Shown: positions 761 to 16,112 of the stretch, in pieces
Numbering within the stretch: position 1 is the stretch's first letter
How the letters are laid out: every line of letters begins with the position of its first letter
UHGV virus genome: UHGV-0124814
DNA: 16,162 nt
Source of the DNA: a virus
Direction: 5' to 3' (one strand)
Program-made: the position numbers and the translations under genes
The notes under the pieces: generated by a model
Seen by the model: the letters and a program-made list of their open reading frames with translations, nothing else
Database searches by the model: none
What the model was told of the DNA's origin: nothing

Positions 761-1345
761 TTACTCACTGACAGGGTTCGTAGGCCACTCAATATCAGGT
801 GCAGTTGATGTATCAACACGGTTCAGCAACACCCGATACTTCTTCCAGGCTTCCAGCAACGAGTTTTCTTCCTCCGTTGCGATTTCCAGATCTGCAGCAT
901 CCTGAAGCGGCGCAATATGCTCACTGGCTACCTGCATCAGGTTGTTTTTTGTTTCTTCCGCCTCCCGGATCCGGAACAGTTTTTCTGCTTCCGTATCCTT
1001 CACCCAGGCTGTGCCGTTCCACTTCTGAAACTCCCCTTCCGGCGATAACCAGGTAACATTTTCCGGTAACGGACCGAGTTCAGAAATAAATAACGCGTCC
1101 CCTGACGCTACGTCATAAACCGTTTTACCCCGATGGTCTTCAACGAGATGCCACGATGACTCATCACTGTTGAAAACAGCCACGAAGCCAGCCGGAATAT
1201 CTGGCGGTGCAATATAGGTACTGTTTGCAGGCAGACCTGTATGAGGTGGAATATATGCGTCACCTTCACCAATAAATTCATTAGTTCCGGCCAGCAGATT
1301 ATAAATTTTTATGGTCCGTGGTTGTTCACTCATTCTGAATGCCAT
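761..1345 (-). CDS. tfa: Tail fiber assembly protein Tfa
   Basis: 194-aa ORF '[31 protein letters not shown]...' matching lambda Tfa from memory; start ATG overlaps the stf stop (TAATG). Confidence 0.9.
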
Positions 1346-4041
1346 TATGCAAGCCTCACAATGTAGTTAAATGCGATGTTTTTGACGGTGTTTTCCGCGT
1401 TACCCGCAGCGTTAACGGTGATGGTATGTCCATGTGAACCAATCGCAACGGAGTGCGTATGAGCACCAATACCGACAGTATGCGCGTGTGCACCTGCAGA
1501 TGCTGCTGTGCCGGACAGTGAGTGGCTATGATTACCATCTGTACTGGTATTCGCTAACCACCCCGTAGACATACCTACTGAGCCTTGTACACCCCAGGTA
1601 TTTTGACCTGAGCTTGTATAACCATATTGATAAGTATCTTTAAAAACACTGGGGTTAAATCGACGGCCATCTCTATGGCTGTGATTACCAGCTGCATTCG
1701 TGCTGCCACTTAAACTATGGGTATGCGCACCAGTGTTATTCGTGGATTTAGTGCCGTAATCAAACGACGATGTGGTTTTCGTCCCCAAATCCGTACTGGA
1801 TGCGCTGGCGCTGTGGGTGTGCGATTTAATGCCGTCCCGTTCCTGAGACAATACGGCACGACCACTGGCAGGTTTGCCCTTAATCGTCCAGCCACGCATA
1901 TCAGGGATCACGCCTGACGGATAAGCGGCTGCAAGTTTCGGGTAGGCAGATTTGTCAAAAGTCTGCCCCTGCATCAGGGCATAACCAGACGGAACGGTAT
2001 CCGATGGCCACGGGATTGGTGCGCCAGGCGGATAAAACTGCTCTGATGGCGTATAGAGTGAATAAACTGTACCGTCCGTTAACCCTTCCGGCTTATTAGC
2101 AGAATATGCTGGTGACGTATGAATCGTCACGCTGGCATTACTGGTATAATCCCATTGAATATTTACACCAGTCGCATAATTTCCGATTGCAACGTAAATA
2201 TCGTAAGTATCACCAGATGTATTGACCCAGGCAAAATTTGTAAACCCTGTCGATGTGCGCTGCCATAAAGCACCAGTAATCCCCTTCGGATTACCATTAC
2301 CTGCACGCAAAACAAGTTCAGATATACCTGCCTGTTGAGGTGAACCGACGTTAAATCCAGTGCCACCAATCAACGTAATTGAAACAACAGAACTCGCCTG
2401 TGGCATGGTTACCGTTGCTAATTTGAACCAACCAGCACCACCGCTGAATGACATTGTTGTTGAGTTAAGCGTACCAATATCTTTCGGCGTCAGTGTTATA
2501 TCCTCCGAAAGCGCCTTACCATTCACCTTACGGTCAGAAGGTACCCGATCATTCGCATTGTCATTCGCTGCTTTAACTGCCTTCGGTGTCGCGGCAAGCG
2601 TTTCAGACGTACTGTTTGTCGCACTGCTGAGCTGTACTATCCCCTTTTTCGTCGTGCTCGCATCCTCAAGCGCCACGGCGGATGCAATATCCTCTGCCCG
2701 TTTTGCCGCTGTCTCAGCGCGCGTTGCTGCGGATTCTGCCGTACTTTTGCTCTGTGCTGCCGCTGTCGCACTGCCAGCAGCCTCTGTCGCCTTTGTGGAT
2801 GCCGTCGTGGCGCTGCTCTTCGCTGCTGACGCCTGTCTGGTCGCCTCATCTTTTGAAGCAGACGCCGATGATGCCGATGACGCCGCCGAACTGGCGGACG
2901 ATGCCGCTGCCGTTTTTGAGGATTCTGCGCTGGTTTCCGACGCTTTCGCGTTCGTTTCGGATGTCTTCGCTGAGGAAGCAGACCTCGCTGCTGCGCTGGC
3001 CTGTTCAGTGGCTTCGCCAGTCTTCGTTGTGGCTGTTGAAGCGGATGATGCGGCGCTTTCTGCCGATTTTCCGGCGGCGGTGGCACTGACTGAGGCCTGC
3101 CCGGCACTTGTTGATGCGGCACTGGCGGACGACGCAGCCGCTGTTTTTGAATCTGCCGCAGCTGAGGCACTCTGTCCCGCTGCCGTTTCAGAAGACCTGG
3201 CGTTCGTCTCGGACGTTTTGGCCGCCTTCGCAGAATTTGCTGTCGCCGTTGCCGAGGAAGCTGCGCTGCTGGCGCTCGAGGCTGCGCTCGTTTCTGATGA
3301 TTTTGCCGCCTCTTTTGAAGCCGACGCATCCCGGGCTGAGGTGGCAGCTTCTGACGCTTTCGTGGTCGCGGTGGATGCAGAAGTGGCTGCTGATTGTTGT
3401 GACGCTGCGGCATTCGTTTCTGACGTTTTCGCCGCAGCGGCACTGGTGGCCGCCGCGCTTTTTGAGGACTCTGCAGCGGCAGCACTTTTTTCCGCTTCAG
3501 TGGCCTTTGTTGATGCCGTTTCTGCGCTGGAAGACGCTGACTGAGCCGACGACGCGGCCTGTCCGGCTGACGTGCTGGCTGCGCGTGCTGAGCCTGCAGC
3601 ATCAGTCGCATGGGTTGCCGCCTCACGGGCTGATGTGCTGGCATCGCCGGCTGACTTCTTCGCGGCTGCCGTGTTCTGTGCCACTGCGGACGCGTTACGC
3701 TCCACCTCTTCCACCATCACTTCAAAACGGCGCAGTGCCTCCGGTCGGACATCATCCTCCGTCATGGCACCGAGAAAATCATTCAGCGTACCTGGTCTGG
3801 AACCTTCATAGACGGTAATGGTCCCGGCATGTGAAGGCGGAAAACCTTCAACCAGCAGGGTGACGCTGTACTGACCATGCTCAACATCCATGCTGTAACG
3901 TCCGGCTTCATCCGGATTTTCAGAGGCCACCGTGTTCACCACCACCGTGCTGCTGGTTCGTCTGGCCTTCAGCACAATGGTGCAGTTCTGTACTGGTTTT
4001 CCTGTGCCATCTTTAAGCACGCCAGAAATTTTTACTGTCAT
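1345..4041 (-). CDS. stf: Side tail fiber protein Stf
   Basis: 898-aa ORF; N-terminus '[22 protein letters not shown]...' matches lambda Stf as recalled; central Ala/Ser/Thr-rich repeats; C-terminal HxH-rich region ending '...[11 protein letters not shown]'. Confidence 0.9.
2690..3700 (-). repeat. Degenerate tandem Ala/Ser/Thr-rich repeats inside stf (recurring '...AAKTSETNA...', '...SSASSAASS...', '...STATTK...')
   Basis: Repeated peptide blocks read from the translation; the GCN-rich DNA creates long spurious ORFs in other frames on both strands. Confidence 0.6.
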
Positions 4042-4192: not shown

Positions 4193-4792
4193 TCAGAAAC
4201 GGTATCCGATACCAACAATAAATGCATCCGTTCGCCAGTCGCCACTACCGGAACCTTCATAAGCAAGGTCAATGGTCACGGATTCGGTCGGATTAAACTG
4301 CACGCCAGCCCCCCACGCCAGAGACGTGTTGCTGTGGCGACCGTCATCACTTCCGGTCAGCACATCGTGCGTTTTCCCCTTGTTGTCAGTTACGCGGAGA
4401 TAATCCCCGGAGAAAGTCGAAATACGGCTGTAAGCCACACCCGCCATCGCATACGCGCTGAACCATTCATTCACGCGCACAGACGGCCCCGCCATTACGC
4501 TGAACCAGCGGTTACGAACGGAATCTTCATGCCAGCGGGTATCGCTGTAACGGGTCAGCTGGCGATTCTTGTCTCCTGCATAGCTGAATGACGTCACCAG
4601 CCCCAGTGTGTCCGTAAACTCATAACGGTATTTCACGTTAATCCCGTTCAGATCATCACTGCCGGGGACGTTCGTCGAGGCATGAAGATACCCCGCGCTC
4701 AGCGTGGACTGATGTTCAGACGCCCATGCAGGCGCACCGGATACGGCCAGACAAATGGCTGCGGACAAAATTGCTGCACAAACTTTACGCAT
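4193..4792 (-). CDS. lom: Lom outer-membrane protein (Ail/Lom/PagC family beta-barrel)
   Basis: 199-aa ORF 'MRKVCAAILSAAICLAVSGAPAWASEHQSTLSAGYLH...GIGYRF' with signal peptide and C-terminal aromatic residue; near-identical to lambda Lom as recalled; SD GAGAGG upstream. Confidence 0.9.
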   Translation of the reverse strand: MRKVCAAILSAAICLAVSGAPAWASEHQSTLSAGYLHASTNVPGSDDLNGINVKYRYEFTDTLGLVTSFSYAGDKNRQLTRYSDTRWHEDSVRNRWFSVMAGPSVRVNEWFSAYAMAGVAYSRISTFSGDYLRVTDNKGKTHDVLTGSDDGRHSNTSLAWGAGVQFNPTESVTIDLAYEGSGSGDWRTDAFIVGIGYRF

Positions 4793-4862: not shown

Positions 4863-6026
4863 TCAACGAATACTGATGCCGGAAGCGGCTTTTTTGGTCA
4901 CAATCACCGTACAGTCGGTGATATTGCCTGCCCCCTGATTGCCTTTCTGGAAAATCTTAAACTCCAGAGTGACGCTACCACCACCACTAGGCATATCAAT
5001 AACTGCACTGTAACTACCGGGAATGGCCCCTTTAGTTTCTCTGGATGCGATTAATACGCCGTTTTTGCGAACTTCAAAACCATAACCCGTGTATCGCGTG
5101 CCTCCTGGGTTATTTCCGCTCCCCGGATCGTCATACGCTATACCGTTAAAAATAATGGGCGGAATAATAATCTGGCGGTCAAAGTTATGATCATCGCTGA
5201 TGGTGACTGTAACCGTACCGTTTGGTGTTTCCGTGTTACCCCACGTACCGACTTTTTTCGGGAAGGCTTTTGATACAGCTTTAACGAAATCCCCTCTGAC
5301 CTGGGTCGCCTCCAGCATGCCCTTAATCGTACAGTTCTGGTTAATCTTGACATTGTTGAGCGTTCCTGAGTTCGCATTCACACTGCCACTGATATCCGCA
5401 TTTTTAGCGGTCAGCTTTCCGTCTGATGTCAGGGAAAATACCGGAGGACTGCCACCGCTGGTAATGGTGGGGGCCGTCAGGCGCTTCAGGAACACGTCGT
5501 TCATGAATATCTGGTTGCCCTGCGCCACAAACATCGGCGTTTCATTCCCGTTTGCCGGGTCAATAAACGCGATACGGTTAGCGGCAACCAGAAACTGGCT
5601 CAGCTTGCCTTCCTCCGTGTCCTCCATGCTGAGGCCAATACCCGCGACATAATGTTTGCCGTCTTTGGTCTGCTCAATTTTGACGCCCCACATGGCATTC
5701 CATTTATCGTTAGCGTCCTTCCACTCTTTCGAAAACTCCTCCAGTCTGCTGGCGTTATCTTCCGTCAGCTCAAAGTTTTCCAGCAGTTCCTTGCCGAGAT
5801 GCGTTTTATTGATCAACCCTTTATAAAAATTCAGATAACCTTCCGCATCATCGCTCGCCCGACCGACGGCCTCCACAAATGCCGATTTACCAACGGTGTT
5901 CACGCTGCGGATATAAAAGTAATAATCATAACCTGGCTTAATATTGCTACTGGCGGCTATCCAGTACAGCGCCGTACCAAGATAACGCGCGCTGGTTTCA
6001 ACCTGCCTGATATCGATAAGCGGATT
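4863..6026 (-). pseudogene. J: C-terminal fragment (~387 codons) of tail tip/host-specificity protein J; N-terminal part of the gene deleted
   Basis: Open frame from 6026 down to the stop at 4863 with no ATG at its 5' end (first candidate is GTG at 5903); translation resembles the lambda J C-terminus as recalled. Confidence 0.8.
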
Positions 6027-6352
6027 TTATAGGCACGGGTATCACCTTCATTAAACCACACCAGCAGCGCCTGCTGCCCCTGCTCTCCGGGCATCCACGC
6101 CAGCGTGAAGCTGGTATCTCCGGCGGATTTCTGACCCTGCCCGGTCGCGGTCCAGTCCGCATCTTCATCATCGAGATAACTGTCGTCATAGGACTCAGCG
6201 GTCAGTTCGCCGGGCGTCAGGTCTTTAACTTTAGCCAGACGCGACCAGTCAACGTCTGAAAGCGGGTTCGCATAAGGGTCGCCGCTCCCGTTATAAACCC
6301 ACAGGGTGGTTCCGGCACCTTTCACCGGTATTGCTGGATTTGGTACAGGCAT
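5957..6352 (-). pseudogene. V: Truncated major tail tube protein V (N-terminal ~120 aa, then out-of-frame read-through into J sequence)
   Basis: '[20 protein letters not shown]...TRAYKIR' matches the lambda gpV N-terminus as recalled, then changes to '[20 protein letters not shown]' and stops; lambda V is about twice as long. Confidence 0.8.
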
Positions 6353-6359
6353 ATCGTCC

Positions 6360-6755
6360 TCACATTTCATAGGTAATGACATAAGTCAGATCGGCAGAAC
6401 TCCACAGGCCCGCATCATCGTCGCGCCGGTAGTCATAGCCGCTGGCCACCATACTGGTGATCAAATCTGACAGTGCCGGGACATCGCTCATCACCGGATA
6501 AATCCGGGACTCCATCCACGAATCCAGCTCTGAATCCGGCACCTGAGCAGGCAGGAAAACTTCAATATGCAGCTCCGCCTGCCAGGTATCACTGTCCAGC
6601 TCTTCGCCCGTGTATTCAGCGCCGGTGAGATAAACGGCAATTGCCGGAAAATCCGCCTCATCAAAAACAGCGGGGCGACCATCAAAAAGCGTCGCCCCGG
6701 TGTCATGCTTCTCCAGTGCATCCAGTACGGCTGCACGGAGTTCAGTATGTTTCAT
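6360..6755 (-). CDS. U: Minor tail protein U (tail terminator), apparently intact
   Basis: 131-aa ORF '[36 protein letters not shown]...' matching lambda gpU in sequence and length; start ATG overlaps the upstream stop (ATGA). Confidence 0.9.
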
Positions 6756-7165
6756 CGCTTTATTACCATTCTCAGTTGATGCTGCAGCGCATAGCCCAGC
6801 TCTTTCGGAAGACGTTCACGCCGTATCCGTTCAATATTCTGTTTAAACGCCGTGGTAAGCGGCACCGCCATCGGGATTTTCACCACATCAATGGGGTAAC
6901 GGTTTTTCCCGGCCACACGCTGCATGACATGCCACCGGCCATTTTTCAGTTGCTGAATAAACGCGCCGGGAATACGACGGTTTCCCACCACAAGCACGCT
7001 GCCGCCACCTTTCAGGGATGAACGCTGCCCCTTTTTACGACGTCTGCGGCGGGAAAGGACAACCCGCGCGTTACCCAGCTTGATTACGGGCAAATCCTGC
7101 CAGTTCTGAATGGTACGGATACTCGCGCCGAAAATGTCAGCCAGCTGCTTTTTGTTGACTTCCAT
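6752..7165 (-). pseudogene. In-frame fusion of the first 23 codons of terminase small subunit Nu1 to the C-terminal part of a Z-like tail completion protein
   Basis: 'MEVNKKQLADIFGASIRTIQNWQ' is the lambda Nu1 N-terminus, then sequence switches at ~7096 to a basic tail ('DLPVIKLGNARVVLSRRRRRKKGQ...') that I believe is the gpZ C-terminus; ATG sits at the conserved distance from cos. Confidence 0.7.
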
Positions 7166-9497: not shown

Positions 9498-10433
9498 TCA
9501 CGATTTCAGCGCAATGACCAGTTTTGCCAGCCCATACAGCATCGGAGACACAGCAATAGCGTATGTATTTTTCCAGTAATACGTCGTGTCACCACAAATC
9601 CACGGCACATTTACAGCACTGCCACCATGACACTGCGCGTTAAACACAGTGAGGTCAGCACGAAACTGCTTCAGCATGGCTGTAAACAGCGCAGGTTGCT
9701 GTGCGTAGGTGGCGGCGCTCATGTCAAACTCTCCCTGCATCCAGCACACCGCCAGCAACACATTTTTCGGGTTCTTCTGTAATGCCGCTTTGGTGCGTGC
9801 GATCAGGTCCTGATATAACGGTTTACCCACACCCCAGCGTGCCGAATCCTGGCTGGCCCCCGTGTCCGCACTGAATGTCCCCTCCGCGCCCTGGGTGAAT
9901 GCCGAACCACCACGACAGCATGGTACCAGCAGGATCCCCGCGTTATTCGGGATATACGGAAGCAGTTTTTTGGCAATATGTAAGCCCTGGCCGACACAGC
10001 CGTACTGCCCTTTGCTCAGGTCTGCCTTCGGATGATTCAGCGTACTCATATCCTGCACATCATGCAGACAGTGGTCAGCCGGGATGATGTCGTTATACGT
10101 ACAACTCTCTCCACCCGGAGTTACCGTGCTGCGGCGCGCCAGCTGTTTAATGCGCGGATCCGGAGCATCGTAAGAATCCGGTAACGGAAGCCCTTCACCG
10201 TAGGCCATGCCGTTGGACTGTCCGGCAAGCACAACCACGTAGAACCAGTCCGGCTCAGATGAAGGGCCGACCTGTGGATCTCCTTCAATAGCCACCGCCT
10301 GCATCAGTGTGTACGGCGTAATGGCAACCGGTCCGCCATATGGCTGCCAGCCCTCTTTCAGTTTGTGTGTCAGCTTTTCCGCAAGGTCTGACGGCGACGC
10401 CGCCCTGACAACATCATAGTGTTTAAATGCCAT
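9498..10433 (-). CDS. Prophage NanS-p-like sialate 9-O-acetylesterase (N-terminal DUF1737-like segment plus esterase core), probably C-terminally truncated
   Basis: 311-aa ORF with 'VVLAGQSNGMAYGEGLPLPD', 'GILLVPCCRGGSAF', 'CWMQGEFD', 'WICGDTTYYWK' resembling E. coli NanS/YjhS as recalled; strong SD GGGAGGA; ORF ends ~100 nt before Rz. Confidence 0.8.
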   Translation of the reverse strand: MAFKHYDVVRAASPSDLAEKLTHKLKEGWQPYGGPVAITPYTLMQAVAIEGDPQVGPSSEPDWFYVVVLAGQSNGMAYGEGLPLPDSYDAPDPRIKQLARRSTVTPGGESCTYNDIIPADHCLHDVQDMSTLNHPKADLSKGQYGCVGQGLHIAKKLLPYIPNNAGILLVPCCRGGSAFTQGAEGTFSADTGASQDSARWGVGKPLYQDLIARTKAALQKNPKNVLLAVCWMQGEFDMSAATYAQQPALFTAMLKQFRADLTVFNAQCHGGSAVNVPWICGDTTYYWKNTYAIAVSPMLYGLAKLVIALKS

Positions 10434-12222: not shown

Positions 12223-14694
12223 ATGAGTAAAGTCTTTATTTGCGCCGCCATTCCGGACGAACAGGCAATAAAGGAAGAAGGTGCAGTCGCTGTAGCCACT
12301 GCCATTGAAGCTGGCGACGAACGCCGTGCTCGAGCAAAATTTCACTGGCAATTCCTGGAACATTATCCGGCTGCTCAGGACTGCGCTTATAAATTTCTTG
12401 TTTGCGAGGATAAACCCGGTATACCCCGCCCTGCCCTCGATTCCTGGGATGCTGAATATATGCAGGAAAACCGCTGGGATGAGGAGTCTGCTTCCTTTGT
12501 CCCGGTTGAGACTGAATCCGATCCGATGAACGTCACTTTTGACAAGCTGGCCCCTGAAGTACAGAACGCTGTCATGGTTAAGTTCGACACATGTGAAAAC
12601 ATCACCGTTGATATGGTTATTAGCGCACAGGAATTGTTGCAGGAAGACATGGCAACATTCGACGGACATATCGTTGAAGCGTTGATGAAAATGCCAGATG
12701 TTAACGCCATGTATCCGGAGCTTAAGCTGCATGCCATCGGGTGGGTTAAGCATAAATGTAAGCCTGGTGCCAAATGGCCCGAAATTCAGGCAGAGATGCG
12801 CATCTGGAAAAAACGTCGCGAAGGTGAACGCAAGGAAACCGGAAAATACACGTCTGTTGTTGATCTCGCCCGCGCCAGAACCAATCAACAGCACACTGAA
12901 AATTCAACAGGAAAAATCAACCCGGTCATTGCTGCCATTCATCGCGAATACAAGCAGACATGGAAAACACTGGATGACGAACTGGCCTACGCTCTCTGGC
13001 CTGGTGATGTGGATGCCGGAAACATTGACGGCAGCATCCATCGCTGGGCAAAAAATGAAGTTATCGACAACGACCGCGAAGACTGGAAGCGTATCTCGGC
13101 ATCAATGCGCAAACAGCCTGATGCCCTTCGCTACGACCGCCAGACTATTTTTGGCCTTGTCCGTGAACGTCCGATCGACATTCACAAAGACCCTGTGGCA
13201 CTGAACAAATACATTACTGAATACCTGACTACAAAGGGCGTGTTTGAAGATGAAGGAACAAATCAGAGCGCAACTGATACTCTCTCGTCGCCAGTACCAG
13301 AAACTGATGCAGTGGAAACGGCAATTCCGGACAACGAAAAAACCGAATGCAAAGTGGAAGTCGAACCATCTGTAGAACGTGAGGGGCCGTTCTACTTCCT
13401 CTTCACCGACAAGGATGGCGAAAAATACGGTCGCGCAAACAAACTTTCTGGTCTGGATAAGGCGCTGTCTGCTGGGGCTACTGAAATCACGAAAGAAGAA
13501 TATTTCGCCCGCAAAAACGGTACATACTCAGGTTCACAACAAAATACTGGTGCATCTGACACGACCGCACAACCAGGGTCAGTAAAAGTTACCGCTGACG
13601 AAGTAAACAAAATTATGCAGGCAGCCAATATCAGCCAGCCTGACGCCGATGAACTGCTTGCAGTATCACGTGGTGAATTTGTTGAAGGGATTAGCGACCC
13701 GAATGATCCGAAATGGGTAAAGGGGATTGAAACCCGCGATTCTGTAAACCAGAACCAGCAAGAATCGGAACAGAACGACCAGAAAGCGGAACAAAACAGC
13801 CCAAATGCGTTACAAAACGAGCCAGAAACGAAACAGCCTGAATCAGTGGCGCAACAGGAAGTGGAAAAAGTCTGCACCGCCTGCGGTCAGACCGGCGGCG
13901 GCAACTGCCCTGATTGTGGCGCGGTAATGGGCGACGCAACATACCAGGAAACATTCGATGAAGAGTATCAGCCTGAAGTTCAGGAAGATGATCCGGAGGA
14001 AATGGAAGGCGCTGAACATCCACACAAGGAGAACACTGGCGGCAATAAGCATCACGATAGCGATAATGAAACTGGCGAGACGGCAGATCACTCAATTAAG
14101 GTGAACGGTCATCAAGAAATCACATCCACCAGCAGGACGTGTGACCATCTAATGATCGACCTTGAAACCATGGGAAAAAATCCTGATGCCCCGATCATCT
14201 CAATAGGTGCAATATTTTTCGATCCGCAAACCGGAGATATGGGACCGGAATTTAGTAAGACTATCGATCTGGAAACTGCTGGCGGAGTCATTGATCGGGA
14301 CACCATTAAATGGTGGCTTAAGCAATCACGCGAAGCGCAATCTGCCATTATGACCGATGAAATCCCGTTAGATGATGCACTGTTACAATTGCGGGAATTT
14401 ATCGACGAAAACTCCGGTGAATTTTTTGTTCAGGTTTGGGGAAATGGAGCCAACTTCGACAACACGATTTTGCGCCGTTCATACGAACGGCAGGGGATCC
14501 CCTGCCCGTGGCGTTACTACAACGATCGCGATGTACGCACAATCGTTGAGCTGGGGAAAGCCATAGACTTCGATGCCAGAACGGCTATTCCATTCGAAGG
14601 TGAGCGCCATAATGCACTTGATGACGCCCGTTACCAGGCAAAATACGTTTCAGCTATCTGGCAAAAACTGATCCCGAGTCAGGCTGATTTTTAA
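12223..14694 (+). CDS. Large prophage early-region protein with C-terminal DEDDh (DnaQ-like) 3'-5' exonuclease domain, central Cys4 zinc-ribbon-like motif and acidic linker
   Basis: 823-aa ORF with SD GAGGT; C-terminal motifs 'MIDLETMG', 'WGNGANFDNT', 'HNALDDARY'; 'CTACGQTGGGNCPDCG'; position immediately upstream of xis/int. Confidence 0.8.
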   Translation: MSKVFICAAIPDEQAIKEEGAVAVATAIEAGDERRARAKFHWQFLEHYPAAQDCAYKFLVCEDKPGIPRPALDSWDAEYMQENRWDEESASFVPVETESDPMNVTFDKLAPEVQNAVMVKFDTCENITVDMVISAQELLQEDMATFDGHIVEALMKMPDVNAMYPELKLHAIGWVKHKCKPGAKWPEIQAEMRIWKKRREGERKETGKYTSVVDLARARTNQQHTENSTGKINPVIAAIHREYKQTWKTLDDELAYALWPGDVDAGNIDGSIHRWAKNEVIDNDREDWKRISASMRKQPDALRYDRQTIFGLVRERPIDIHKDPVALNKYITEYLTTKGVFEDEGTNQSATDTLSSPVPETDAVETAIPDNEKTECKVEVEPSVEREGPFYFLFTDKDGEKYGRANKLSGLDKALSAGATEITKEEYFARKNGTYSGSQQNTGASDTTAQPGSVKVTADEVNKIMQAANISQPDADELLAVSRGEFVEGISDPNDPKWVKGIETRDSVNQNQQESEQNDQKAEQNSPNALQNEPETKQPESVAQQEVEKVCTACGQTGGGNCPDCGAVMGDATYQETFDEEYQPEVQEDDPEEMEGAEHPHKENTGGNKHHDSDNETGETADHSIKVNGHQEITSTSRTCDHLMIDLETMGKNPDAPIISIGAIFFDPQTGDMGPEFSKTIDLETAGGVIDRDTIKWWLKQSREAQSAIMTDEIPLDDALLQLREFIDENSGEFFVQVWGNGANFDNTILRRSYERQGIPCPWRYYNDRDVRTIVELGKAIDFDARTAIPFEGERHNALDDARYQAKYVSAIWQKLIPSQADF

Positions 14695-14755: not shown

Positions 14756-15025
14756 ATGAGCGAACAGTACCTGATAACGCTCGACGAGTGGAAACCAAAA
14801 CGGTTCAGTCTCCCAATAACAAACACTACCCTGGTGAAATACGGAAAACTAGGATACATCGTTCCAAGACCACAAAAAATTCGTGGGCGTTGGCTGATAG
14901 ATCGCCGAGCAGTATTTGTTGGGCCTGGTGAAACGGGAATTGCGCCGGAAATTCATACTGGCGATGATGATGCACTGAAGGAGATTTTAACTCATGTCAC
15001 CGAGGCCACGAAAAAACAGCACTGA
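14756..15025 (+). CDS. xis: Excisionase (Xis-like)
   Basis: 89-aa ORF from ATG at 14756 (SD GGAG 8 nt upstream), immediately upstream of and overlapping int by 32 nt. Confidence 0.65.
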   Translation: MSEQYLITLDEWKPKRFSLPITNTTLVKYGKLGYIVPRPQKIRGRWLIDRRAVFVGPGETGIAPEIHTGDDDALKEILTHVTEATKKQH

Positions 15026-16112
15026 CGTAGCCGGTCTTTACGAAAAGTTTGATCGCAGAACTGGCAGAGTTTACTACCAGTATAAAAATCCTGTGACTGG
15101 AAAATTTCACGGACTCGGAACAGACAAAGGTAAGGCAGAAAAAATCGCTTCCACAGCCAATCAGCGAATAGCTGCAGCAGAAGCTGAATATTTCATGCGC
15201 AAAATTGATGAAAGTCCGTCAGCAACAAAACGTCGGGGTATCAGATTAAAGGCATGGGTTGATCGATATCTGAAAATACAGGACACGCGACTGAAAAATG
15301 GAGATATTGCAGCTACAACTCACAAAGAAAAAACTCGAATGGCTGCATACCTGGTTTCCCGTCTGGGAAACCCCCCATTGAAAGAACTGGAAGTAAGAGA
15401 CTTTGCATTAATACTGGATGAGTGGCTGGATAAAGACATGGTCAGCACAGCGAGAGTAAATCGTGGATTATGGGTTGATATTTATAAAGAAGCACAGCAT
15501 GCAGGGGAAGTTCCTCCTGGATGGAATCCTCCGGAGGCTACCCGTAAACCGATCCCTAAAGTAACCAGAGCCAGGCTCACCATGGAAGACTGGCAAAAAA
15601 TTTACAATGCAACGCCTGAAAAACACTTTATCCGTAACGCAATGCTTCTTGCGATTGTTACTGGTCAGCGCCGTGATGACATTTGCCACATGCGTTTTTC
15701 AGATGTGTGGAACGAACACTTGCATATCACCCAGGGAAAAACCGGAATGCGTCTGGCGTTACCGCTTACACTACGCTGTGATGCCATTGGGATAACGTTA
15801 AAAGAAGTTATTGATGGGTGCCGAGACAGAATATTAAGTCCATATCTAATCCATAGTCGGCACCAGAAACAACCGAAGCCGATGAGTAAAGACAACCTGA
15901 GCGACTACTTTGCCAAAGCACGGGATCTGGCTGGGATAATTCCACCAGCAGGAAAAACTCCGCCAACATTTCATGAACAACGCTCTCTATCAGAACGGCT
16001 GTACCGTGCACAGGGTATCGATACAAAAACATTACTAGGACATAAAGTCCAGGCAACCACCGATCGCTATAACGATACTCGAGGTCAGGAATGGGTTAAG
16101 CTGGTTATTTGA
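14994..16112 (+). CDS. int: Tyrosine site-specific integrase, lambda Int family
   Basis: 372-aa ORF; C-terminal catalytic region '...TGQRRDDICHMRFSDV...', 'HEQRSLSERLY', 'LLGHKVQATTDRYNDTRGQEW' parallels lambda Int RHR-Y motifs; distinct from lambda Int itself. Confidence 0.9.
   Translation: MSPRPRKNSTDVAGLYEKFDRRTGRVYYQYKNPVTGKFHGLGTDKGKAEKIASTANQRIAAAEAEYFMRKIDESPSATKRRGIRLKAWVDRYLKIQDTRLKNGDIAATTHKEKTRMAAYLVSRLGNPPLKELEVRDFALILDEWLDKDMVSTARVNRGLWVDIYKEAQHAGEVPPGWNPPEATRKPIPKVTRARLTMEDWQKIYNATPEKHFIRNAMLLAIVTGQRRDDICHMRFSDVWNEHLHITQGKTGMRLALPLTLRCDAIGITLKEVIDGCRDRILSPYLIHSRHQKQPKPMSKDNLSDYFAKARDLAGIIPPAGKTPPTFHEQRSLSERLYRAQGIDTKTLLGHKVQATTDRYNDTRGQEWVKLVI

Follow-up and report, generated by a model that had tools for sequence, protein, structure and literature searches.

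The Ala/Ser/Thr-rich tract in the stf gene of UHGV virus genome UHGV-0124814 is, with a probability of roughly nine in ten, the proximal rod of a side tail fibre, a trimer whose three parallel alpha-helical strands wind into a coiled coil with an Ala/Ser core. This structure is already known from the literature as the PCoil or proximal coiled-coil domain, and the tract is an ordinary and common form of it. We analysed the whole stretch of 16,162 nucleotides (hereafter the window), in which the tract lies on the minus strand at positions 2674–3702 (aa 114–456) and consists of 49 repeats of the pattern x-x-S-A-x-x-A, delimited by rows of seven residues, autocorrelation and an HMM.

The stf gene and its prophage context

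The stf gene (1345–4041, minus strand; ORF list, translation, and Pfam matches to PF08400, Collar and Phage_fiber) encodes 898 aa. Judged by its sequence, the product is a lambda-type side tail fibre of the PF08400 family Stf/StfR. Its N-terminus (aa 1–134) matched PF08400, ‘prophage tail fibre N-terminal’ (E=4e-70), with 234.5 bits against a gathering cutoff of 26.6. The putative collar-binding N-terminal domain (aa 1–94; 3760–4041, minus strand) matched residues 1–94 of the ‘Tail fiber protein’ chain in PDB 9e7m/9mgh (E=3e-47). At the opposite end, the predicted distal receptor-binding tip (aa 656–898; 1348–2076, minus strand) carries HxH repeats, a Phage_fiber match and a Collar domain (aa 673–720; Pfam), and the C-terminus matched the T4 gp37 tip (2xgf; E=3.8e-85). 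The genes are arranged in the order J-lom-stf-tfa, on the minus strand throughout. From the ORF list and Pfam, J is present as its C-terminal third (4863–5903) and lom lies at 4193–4792; tfa, directly downstream of stf, encodes a putative tail fibre assembly chaperone (761–1345; Caudo_TAP, E=3.7e-44). Both the J-lom-stf-tfa position and the N-domain match to 9e7m are shared with Ur-lambda Stf.

The prophage in the window is defective. A Nu1(1–31)-Z fusion ORF at 6752–7165 shows the head genes to be deleted, and a truncated V (5957–6382) adjoins the last 346 aa of J, so that G to I are missing, together with the larger part of J. The same stf allele (99.9% identity) is found within an intact tail module of another E. 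coli genome.

Seven-residue periodicity of the tract

A sequence-only reading of the window had described the shaft of Stf at 2690–3700 (approximately aa 115–450; Ala 37%, Ser 25%, Thr 13%) as Ala/Ser/Thr-rich near-repeats. The description was accurate, and the repeats exceed chance by far (49 heptads, z=7–10); the seven-residue period and the coiled coil, which we report here, had been overlooked. Written in rows of seven, aa 114–456 form 49 heptads without interruption and with the consensus [A/S]-[T/S]-S-A-[T/S]-[A/S]-A. Ala occupies position 7 in 46 of the 49 heptads and Ser position 3 in 37; position 4 is Ala in 34 and Lys or Glu in 12. Residue self-identity was 0.37–0.44 at each multiple of 7 up to lag 84 (z=7.0–10.0 with 1000 shuffles as reference), and at lags other than multiples of 7 no self-identity above background was found in the tract. 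With the tract as training set, a heptad HMM covered aa 111–457 and showed zero register breaks.

Self-blastn of stf, serving as the self dot-plot that had been proposed as a check, confirmed internal periodicity: 32 of 37 off-diagonal HSPs lay inside the tract, and the offset was 0 mod 21 in 23 of the 37, including all top 12. The spacings in the longer direct-repeat families D1–D3 and D7 are all multiples of 21 nt, as is true for most of the longer families. The periodicity is thus strong, but it resides in the protein pattern and not in recent DNA copies.

Comparison with known proximal coiled coils

Ghosh et al. 2012 (PMC3368898) gave the name ‘PCoil’ to a low-complexity Ala/Ser-rich segment that follows PF08400; it is alpha-helical according to CD and a trimer according to SEC-MALLS, has a loose heptad pattern, and differs in length by multiples of seven. 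In Ur-lambda gpStf, an N-domain (1–91) is followed by a linker, a proximal coiled-coil (102–393), a hinge (394–422) and the distal part; the N-domain makes a 12-copy collar on the Ur-lambda tail tip, and the start of the trimeric bundle is visible by cryo-EM in the virion (PMC12617516). Lambda Stf has also been counted among the long prokaryotic coiled-coil proteins (Rose et al. 2005, PMC1322226). The trimeric helical state and the virion position of the window tract are taken from this literature on homologues and would apply by analogy. The tract itself is an Ala/Ser-rich low-complexity segment right after the N-domain, it has the seven-residue periodicity, and its length differs among homologues in sevens, with exceptions only in small classes.

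A leucine zipper would carry Leu, Ile or Val at positions a and d; Val, Ile and Leu are almost absent from the tract, which works like a coiled coil with an alanine/serine core. Because the core stripe is composed of Ala/Ser and 12 of the 49 position-4 cells hold Lys or Glu, the a/d assignment is left unsettled by the sequence. An AF2 monomer model of aa 1–520 was helical at 101–246, 258–385 and 398–463, at low confidence (mean pLDDT 57, pTM 0.22), and contained two fold-back loops at which the helix doubled back on itself; the model describes a single chain. An AlphaFold3 model of full-length gpStf was also folded back, at odds with cryo-ET (Wang et al. 2025, PMC12617516).

The tract is collinear with that of lambda Stf (~83% identity over the anchored region), and both proteins have the GIVQLSS...PKAVK hinge motif and a gp37-like tip. 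They differ in 15 additional heptads in the window allele (105 aa, about aa 304–408) and in the middle region after aa 491, and the prophage in the window is a defective one. The PCoil of EPclA/B, a domain of EHEC prophage collagen-like fibres, likewise lies directly after PF08400 and is Ala/Ser-rich, of low complexity and built of loose heptads; it is ~116–145 aa long, richer in Glu, with the pattern A-x-x-A/S-x-x-S, and is followed by collagen triplets (PMC3368898), whereas the window tract has 343 aa, is richer in Ser/Thr and leads into a hinge motif of the Mu/P2 type and a tip resembling gp37. Relatives of the collagen type also occurred among the homologues (L072, L079).

Tract length in lambda and among homologues

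The 898-aa Stf had been noted to exceed lambda Stf, given there as ~774 aa, and the difference lies mainly in the tract. Ur-lambda Stf, obtained from lambda coordinates 19650–21973 (2324 nt) plus a restored base, is 774 aa long. A protein of the same size, P0155 (774 aa), was rejected as Ur-lambda Stf on its 49% positional identity to orf-401. Lambda orf-401 (L081) is collinear with the window Stf but lacks exactly 105 aa, equal to 15 heptads. The block without a counterpart (about aa 304–408; 2818–3132, minus strand) was placed by alignment, a gap-position scan and junction DNA; the scan gave 308 as the first residue missing in lambda, with 300–315 within 3 matches. Of the 124 residues by which the window protein exceeds Ur-lambda Stf, 105 are accounted for by this block in the tract, which leaves a difference of 19.

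A near-identical set of homologues (120 proteins, of which 117 had the same tract length) was too uniform, and diversity was therefore taken from 50%-identity representatives and IMG/VR loci. In tblastn searches against phages the tract was masked as low complexity and only the flanks were aligned, so that lengths were read from the spacing of the pieces. Among 107 unique anchored tracts, the distance from RRFExMVEE to KGIVQLSS was 138, 145, 159, 250, 257, 355 or 362 aa, all congruent mod 7, with small out-of-phase classes at 154, 344, 354 and 356 aa; 7 of the 11 classes, including all populous ones, are in phase. Tracts of a second flavour, KTSETNA, fell into classes of 40, 131 and 236 aa (3/3 in phase). 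The out-of-phase variants differ by −1, −6, −18 or −208 aa, and by −9 nt in H77; some of them may be assembly errors. The tract after PF08400 measured ~18–347 aa in a set of 150 representatives drawn from 50%-identity clusters, and the HMM detected one register break in total. Conservation of heptad phase is hence a strong tendency and not a rule. Comparison of copy number across homologues, also proposed earlier, thus showed that lengths are not identical: the tract is polymorphic, with seven in-phase classes of 138–362 aa.

The long form is common. Of 5,426 complete E. coli genomes, 3,593 had a site that covered at least 80% of a 1032-nt tract query, K-12 stfR being among these sites, and the typical match was a single ungapped piece of 1030 nt at 88–96% identity. 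The 49-heptad form is the commonest, which is difficult to reconcile with the earlier label ‘expanded’ in so far as this word suggests something unusual or unstable: the long form is normal, and the tract of lambda is a shorter variant. In E. coli K-12 Rac StfR (1120 aa) the 1030-nt tract is ungapped at 94.5% identity (H83–H86), while the distal modules and the total length differ (H12–H14 cover only 74% of the gene).

Indels of 105 aa

Short alleles lack exactly 105 aa at a minimum of three clearly separate sites: at about aa 130 (P0143), at about aa 186–215 (L085, P0139, P0124, P0144) and at about aa 304–316 (lambda, P0134, P0135 and others). The KTSETNA flavour also occurs in sizes 105 aa apart, and its own super-repeat is 63 aa. 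In the window tract no global super-repeat of 105 aa was detected, as identity at lag 105 (0.403) was close to the mean for multiples of 7 (0.398±0.028), and we rejected such a repeat as a global feature. Local patches of lag-105 similarity are nevertheless present at all three deletion sites, and a self-blastn HSP at offset 112 matches the position of the −112 class, at aa 246. Unequal recombination at short homologies is the simplest reading of the 105-aa indels. It is doubtful that rod length comes in quanta of 15 heptads (105 aa) and not just of single heptads. Selection on arm length or on azimuthal phase, in units of about one supercoil turn, is possible, 105 aa corresponding by our estimate to roughly one such turn; if this were true, 105-aa steps would leave hinge and tip pointing the same way with respect to the tail.

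Exchange of fibre modules

The N-domain and a 347-aa tract are shared by proteins of 956, 968, 1096 and 1181 aa with differing distal parts. The suspected modular exchange between fibres is thereby borne out, the same N-domain and tract being joined to many distal modules. A conserved 25-residue motif, GIVQLSS...PKAVK (aa 466–490; 2572–2646, minus strand; homologue alignments), is nearly invariant, and homologues diverge immediately downstream of it. It is common to P1-, P2- and Mu-type fibres (matches at aa 459–504; 5yvq, aa 440–505). We therefore regard this motif as the main exchange boundary. Exchange takes place at the boundary between N-domain and tract as well: N-domains 96–98% identical to that of the window carry the KTSETNA flavour. 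Within the tract, we found one junction, in L084, where the shared AAKTSETNA (aa 273–281) is the exact point at which a lambda-type tract gives way, in heptad phase, to one of the KTSETNA type. The tract itself, previously proposed as a site of exchange, can thus serve as one, but the principal boundary lies downstream at GIVQLSS...PKAVK.

Open reading frames in alternative frames

Two long alternative-frame ORFs had been attributed to the GCN-rich DNA of the tract; both exist, and we counted four in all. The longest is an antisense frame of 394 aa rich in Ala, Asp and Val (2360–3544, plus strand); a same-strand +1 frame of 335 aa is rich in Arg, Pro and Gln (2637–3644, minus strand). Both are putative compositional artefacts. 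A second antisense frame contains two ORFs split by one stop (2682–3089, 135 aa, and 3108–3818, 236 aa; plus strand). No stop interrupts the sense +1 frame over the 1029 nt of the tract, compared with 13.8 per kb in the rest of stf, and the two antisense frames have 1 stop each.

The openness results from codon composition. Tract codons are almost all GCN, TCN, ACN, AGY, AAR and GAR, T makes up 1% of codon position 2, Tyr codons are absent, and Gln and His codons are few. The +1 frame is open because its stops need NTN codons, which are nearly absent, and the main antisense frame is open because its stops would have to come from Tyr, or from Gln/His behind an NNT codon, which are nearly absent too. 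The warning that gene callers could mistake such frames for genes proved justified: lambda orf206b (NP_040603.1, 206 aa), antisense in orf-401, is 66% identical to the 394-aa ORF of the window, and in phage phi458 the antisense Orf45 was annotated within stf, with stf truncated. In the IMG/VR homologue L005, a frameshifted copy reads on in the open +1 frame. The exact four window ORFs were absent from a collection of ~15 billion proteins, a weak result since gene callers may pick other starts.

Alternative explanations

From its composition, the tract could be taken for a low-complexity linker that is intrinsically disordered and acts as a flexible tether in place of a folded rod, as Ala, Ser and Thr make up 75% of it, the BLAST low-complexity filter masks it and no Pfam family covers it. 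A disordered linker, however, would have no reason to keep a strict seven-residue register over 343 residues or to gain and lose sequence in phase, and for the homologous region CD and SEC-MALLS showed a helical trimer, and cryo-EM and cryo-ET a rod (PMC3368898, PMC12617516); we consider such a tether highly improbable. The differences in tract length class among homologues might also be taken as the mark of a hypermutable contingency locus, whose copy number would often be changed by replication slippage and give rapid variation of fibre length. Such a locus depends on similar, misalignable DNA copies, which the tract does not have. DNA identity was 0.46 at lag 21, against ~0.36 for the remaining in-frame lags and 0.22 for those out of frame. 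Tandem Repeats Finder (TRF) detected no 21-nt array in stf, and we rejected a simple DNA tandem-repeat description; its sole report in the gene was a 9-nt unit (2.8 copies, 25 nt, 2861–2885). Slippage could account for this 9-nt run and for rare variants of −3, −6 and −18 aa within SSA-rich parts. For the tract as a whole, the DNA copies are too degenerate for the expansion or contraction proposed earlier to proceed by slippage. The 1030-nt length is moreover kept ungapped at 88–96% identity across those 3,593 genomes, and the indels seen are mostly large blocks and not single units. Length stability and degenerate DNA together argue against a slippage-prone contingency repeat, which we consider very unlikely.

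The region might instead be constrained by a real overlapping gene, for instance the antisense 394-aa ORF as a homologue of orf206b. Lambda (206 aa) and the window (394 aa) both have this antisense frame open, with 66% identity between them, orf206b is annotated in RefSeq, and because the antisense frame shares wobble positions with stf, substitution patterns are hardly able to exclude a gene. On the other side, the openness follows from codon composition, to which the simultaneous opening of three frames also points; the ORFs differ twofold in length between alleles; orf206b is non-essential with no function reported; and the exact window ORFs are missing from the protein collection. An overlapping gene is accordingly hard to credit. 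We favour the Ala/Ser-cored, three-stranded proximal rod.

Discussion

In the proximal rod that we propose, the small residues Ala and Ser would take the place of Leu/Ile in the core, and the rod would join the N-terminal collar-binding domain, via the hinge, to a distal part that binds the receptor and can be exchanged. The repeats may have drifted to ~40% identity because the fold would need only the seven-residue pattern. Most surviving indels are gains or losses of whole heptads, typically in blocks of 7, 105, 112, 217 or 224 aa, and we infer a mechanism in which these blocks lie between short similar patches.

Block-indel polymorphism in Ala-rich heptad coiled coils, such as Plasmodium vivax MSP3 and honeybee silk, resembles that of the tract. 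These proteins also consist of Ala-dominated heptads; they and their organisms are unrelated to phage fibres, and the likeness is an analogy only. Polymorphism has been reported for P. vivax MSP3.

The current understanding of side tail fibres is unchanged by these results. As a structural repeat that DNA repeat finders fail to see, the tract makes a textbook-style example. For annotators, it is a region from which spurious ORFs reliably arise and in which frameshifted copies read on, and we advise masking such frames. Natural splice points for chimeras are provided by the in-phase motifs of the tract and the downstream GIVQLSS...PKAVK, and arm length is relevant to lambda-based delivery particles with chimeric Stf. 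For the phage, the tract would set the reach of the side fibre: each heptad would add ~1 nm, and at 0.148 nm per residue, the value from which we infer rod lengths, 49 heptads would give a rod of ~51 nm and the 34 heptads of lambda ~35 nm, so that the 49-heptad arm should exceed that of lambda by ~15 nm.

Length variation and mosaicism of the Stf tract

In the short alleles of the side tail fibre protein Stf, exactly 105 aa (15 heptads) were missing from the Ala/Ser/Thr heptad tract, and the absence fell at no fewer than three different positions. Judged from the homologues P0143, L085, P0139, P0144 and lambda, these sites correspond to Stf aa 130, 186-215 and 304-316 (approximately window 3099-3654). 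Tracts of the second, KTSETNA flavour likewise differed in size by 105 aa. We found no lag-105 self-similarity over the whole tract; it was confined to local patches, located at the deletion sites.

The two flavours also occurred within one gene. In the homologous locus L084 (NZ_CP086470, 3001-5100), stf is a mosaic in which a lambda-type tract passes in phase into a KTSETNA-type tract, and the switch point is exactly the AAKTSETNA motif (aa 273-281) that is common to both tract types. The RefSeq label of this gene as a partial pseudogene covers the first 435 nt only, and its frame remains open for more than 700 codons.

A different arrangement was present in two IMG/VR relatives, L072 and L079. 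Their N-domain is that of the window Stf, followed by a shorter, Glu-rich heptad tract and then by collagen Gly-X-Y triplets, an architecture known from EHEC prophage tail fibres as the EPcl type (Ghosh 2012, PMC3368898). The window contains no equivalent.

Defective state and gene content of the prophage

The prophage is defective over window 4863-7165. The ORF at 6752-7165 (-) is a fusion in which residues 1-31 of Nu1 precede the C-terminal two thirds of Z, and the head genes have therefore been deleted. The tail tube gene V is truncated (5957-6382, minus strand; profile positions 1-94 of 135 covered) and adjoins a 346-aa J fragment whose start falls within the second Ig domain, from which we conclude that the greater part of J was lost together with G, T, H, M, L, K and I.

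Elsewhere, window 9498-10433 appears to encode a DUF1737 and SASA (sialate O-acetylesterase-like) protein. The 823-aa product of 12223-14694 has a predicted Rv2179c-like 3'-5' exoribonuclease domain at its C-terminus, and its gene adjoins that of the integrase (14994-16112). Immediately past the chaperone gene tfa lies a class I SAM-dependent methyltransferase gene (38-706), which may be prophage cargo, because an intact prophage, that of NZ_OZ547136, carries the same gene after its tfa.

Antisense annotations and frameshift products of the tract

Reference annotations place antisense 'hypothetical proteins' within the stf coiled-coil tract, namely orf206b of lambda (NP_040603.1; 1648-2268 of L081, NC_001416) and Orf45 of phi458 (UYE91778.1; 2998-3735 of L082, OP434518). 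In phi458, the N-terminal half of stf itself was left unannotated. The stf copy of L005 (IMGVR_UViG_2534681663_000014) is frameshifted and yields 464 aa, ending in an Arg/His/Pro-rich tail read in the stop-free +1 frame. This example shows that long aberrant proteins arise from the tract through sequencing errors or real frameshifts.
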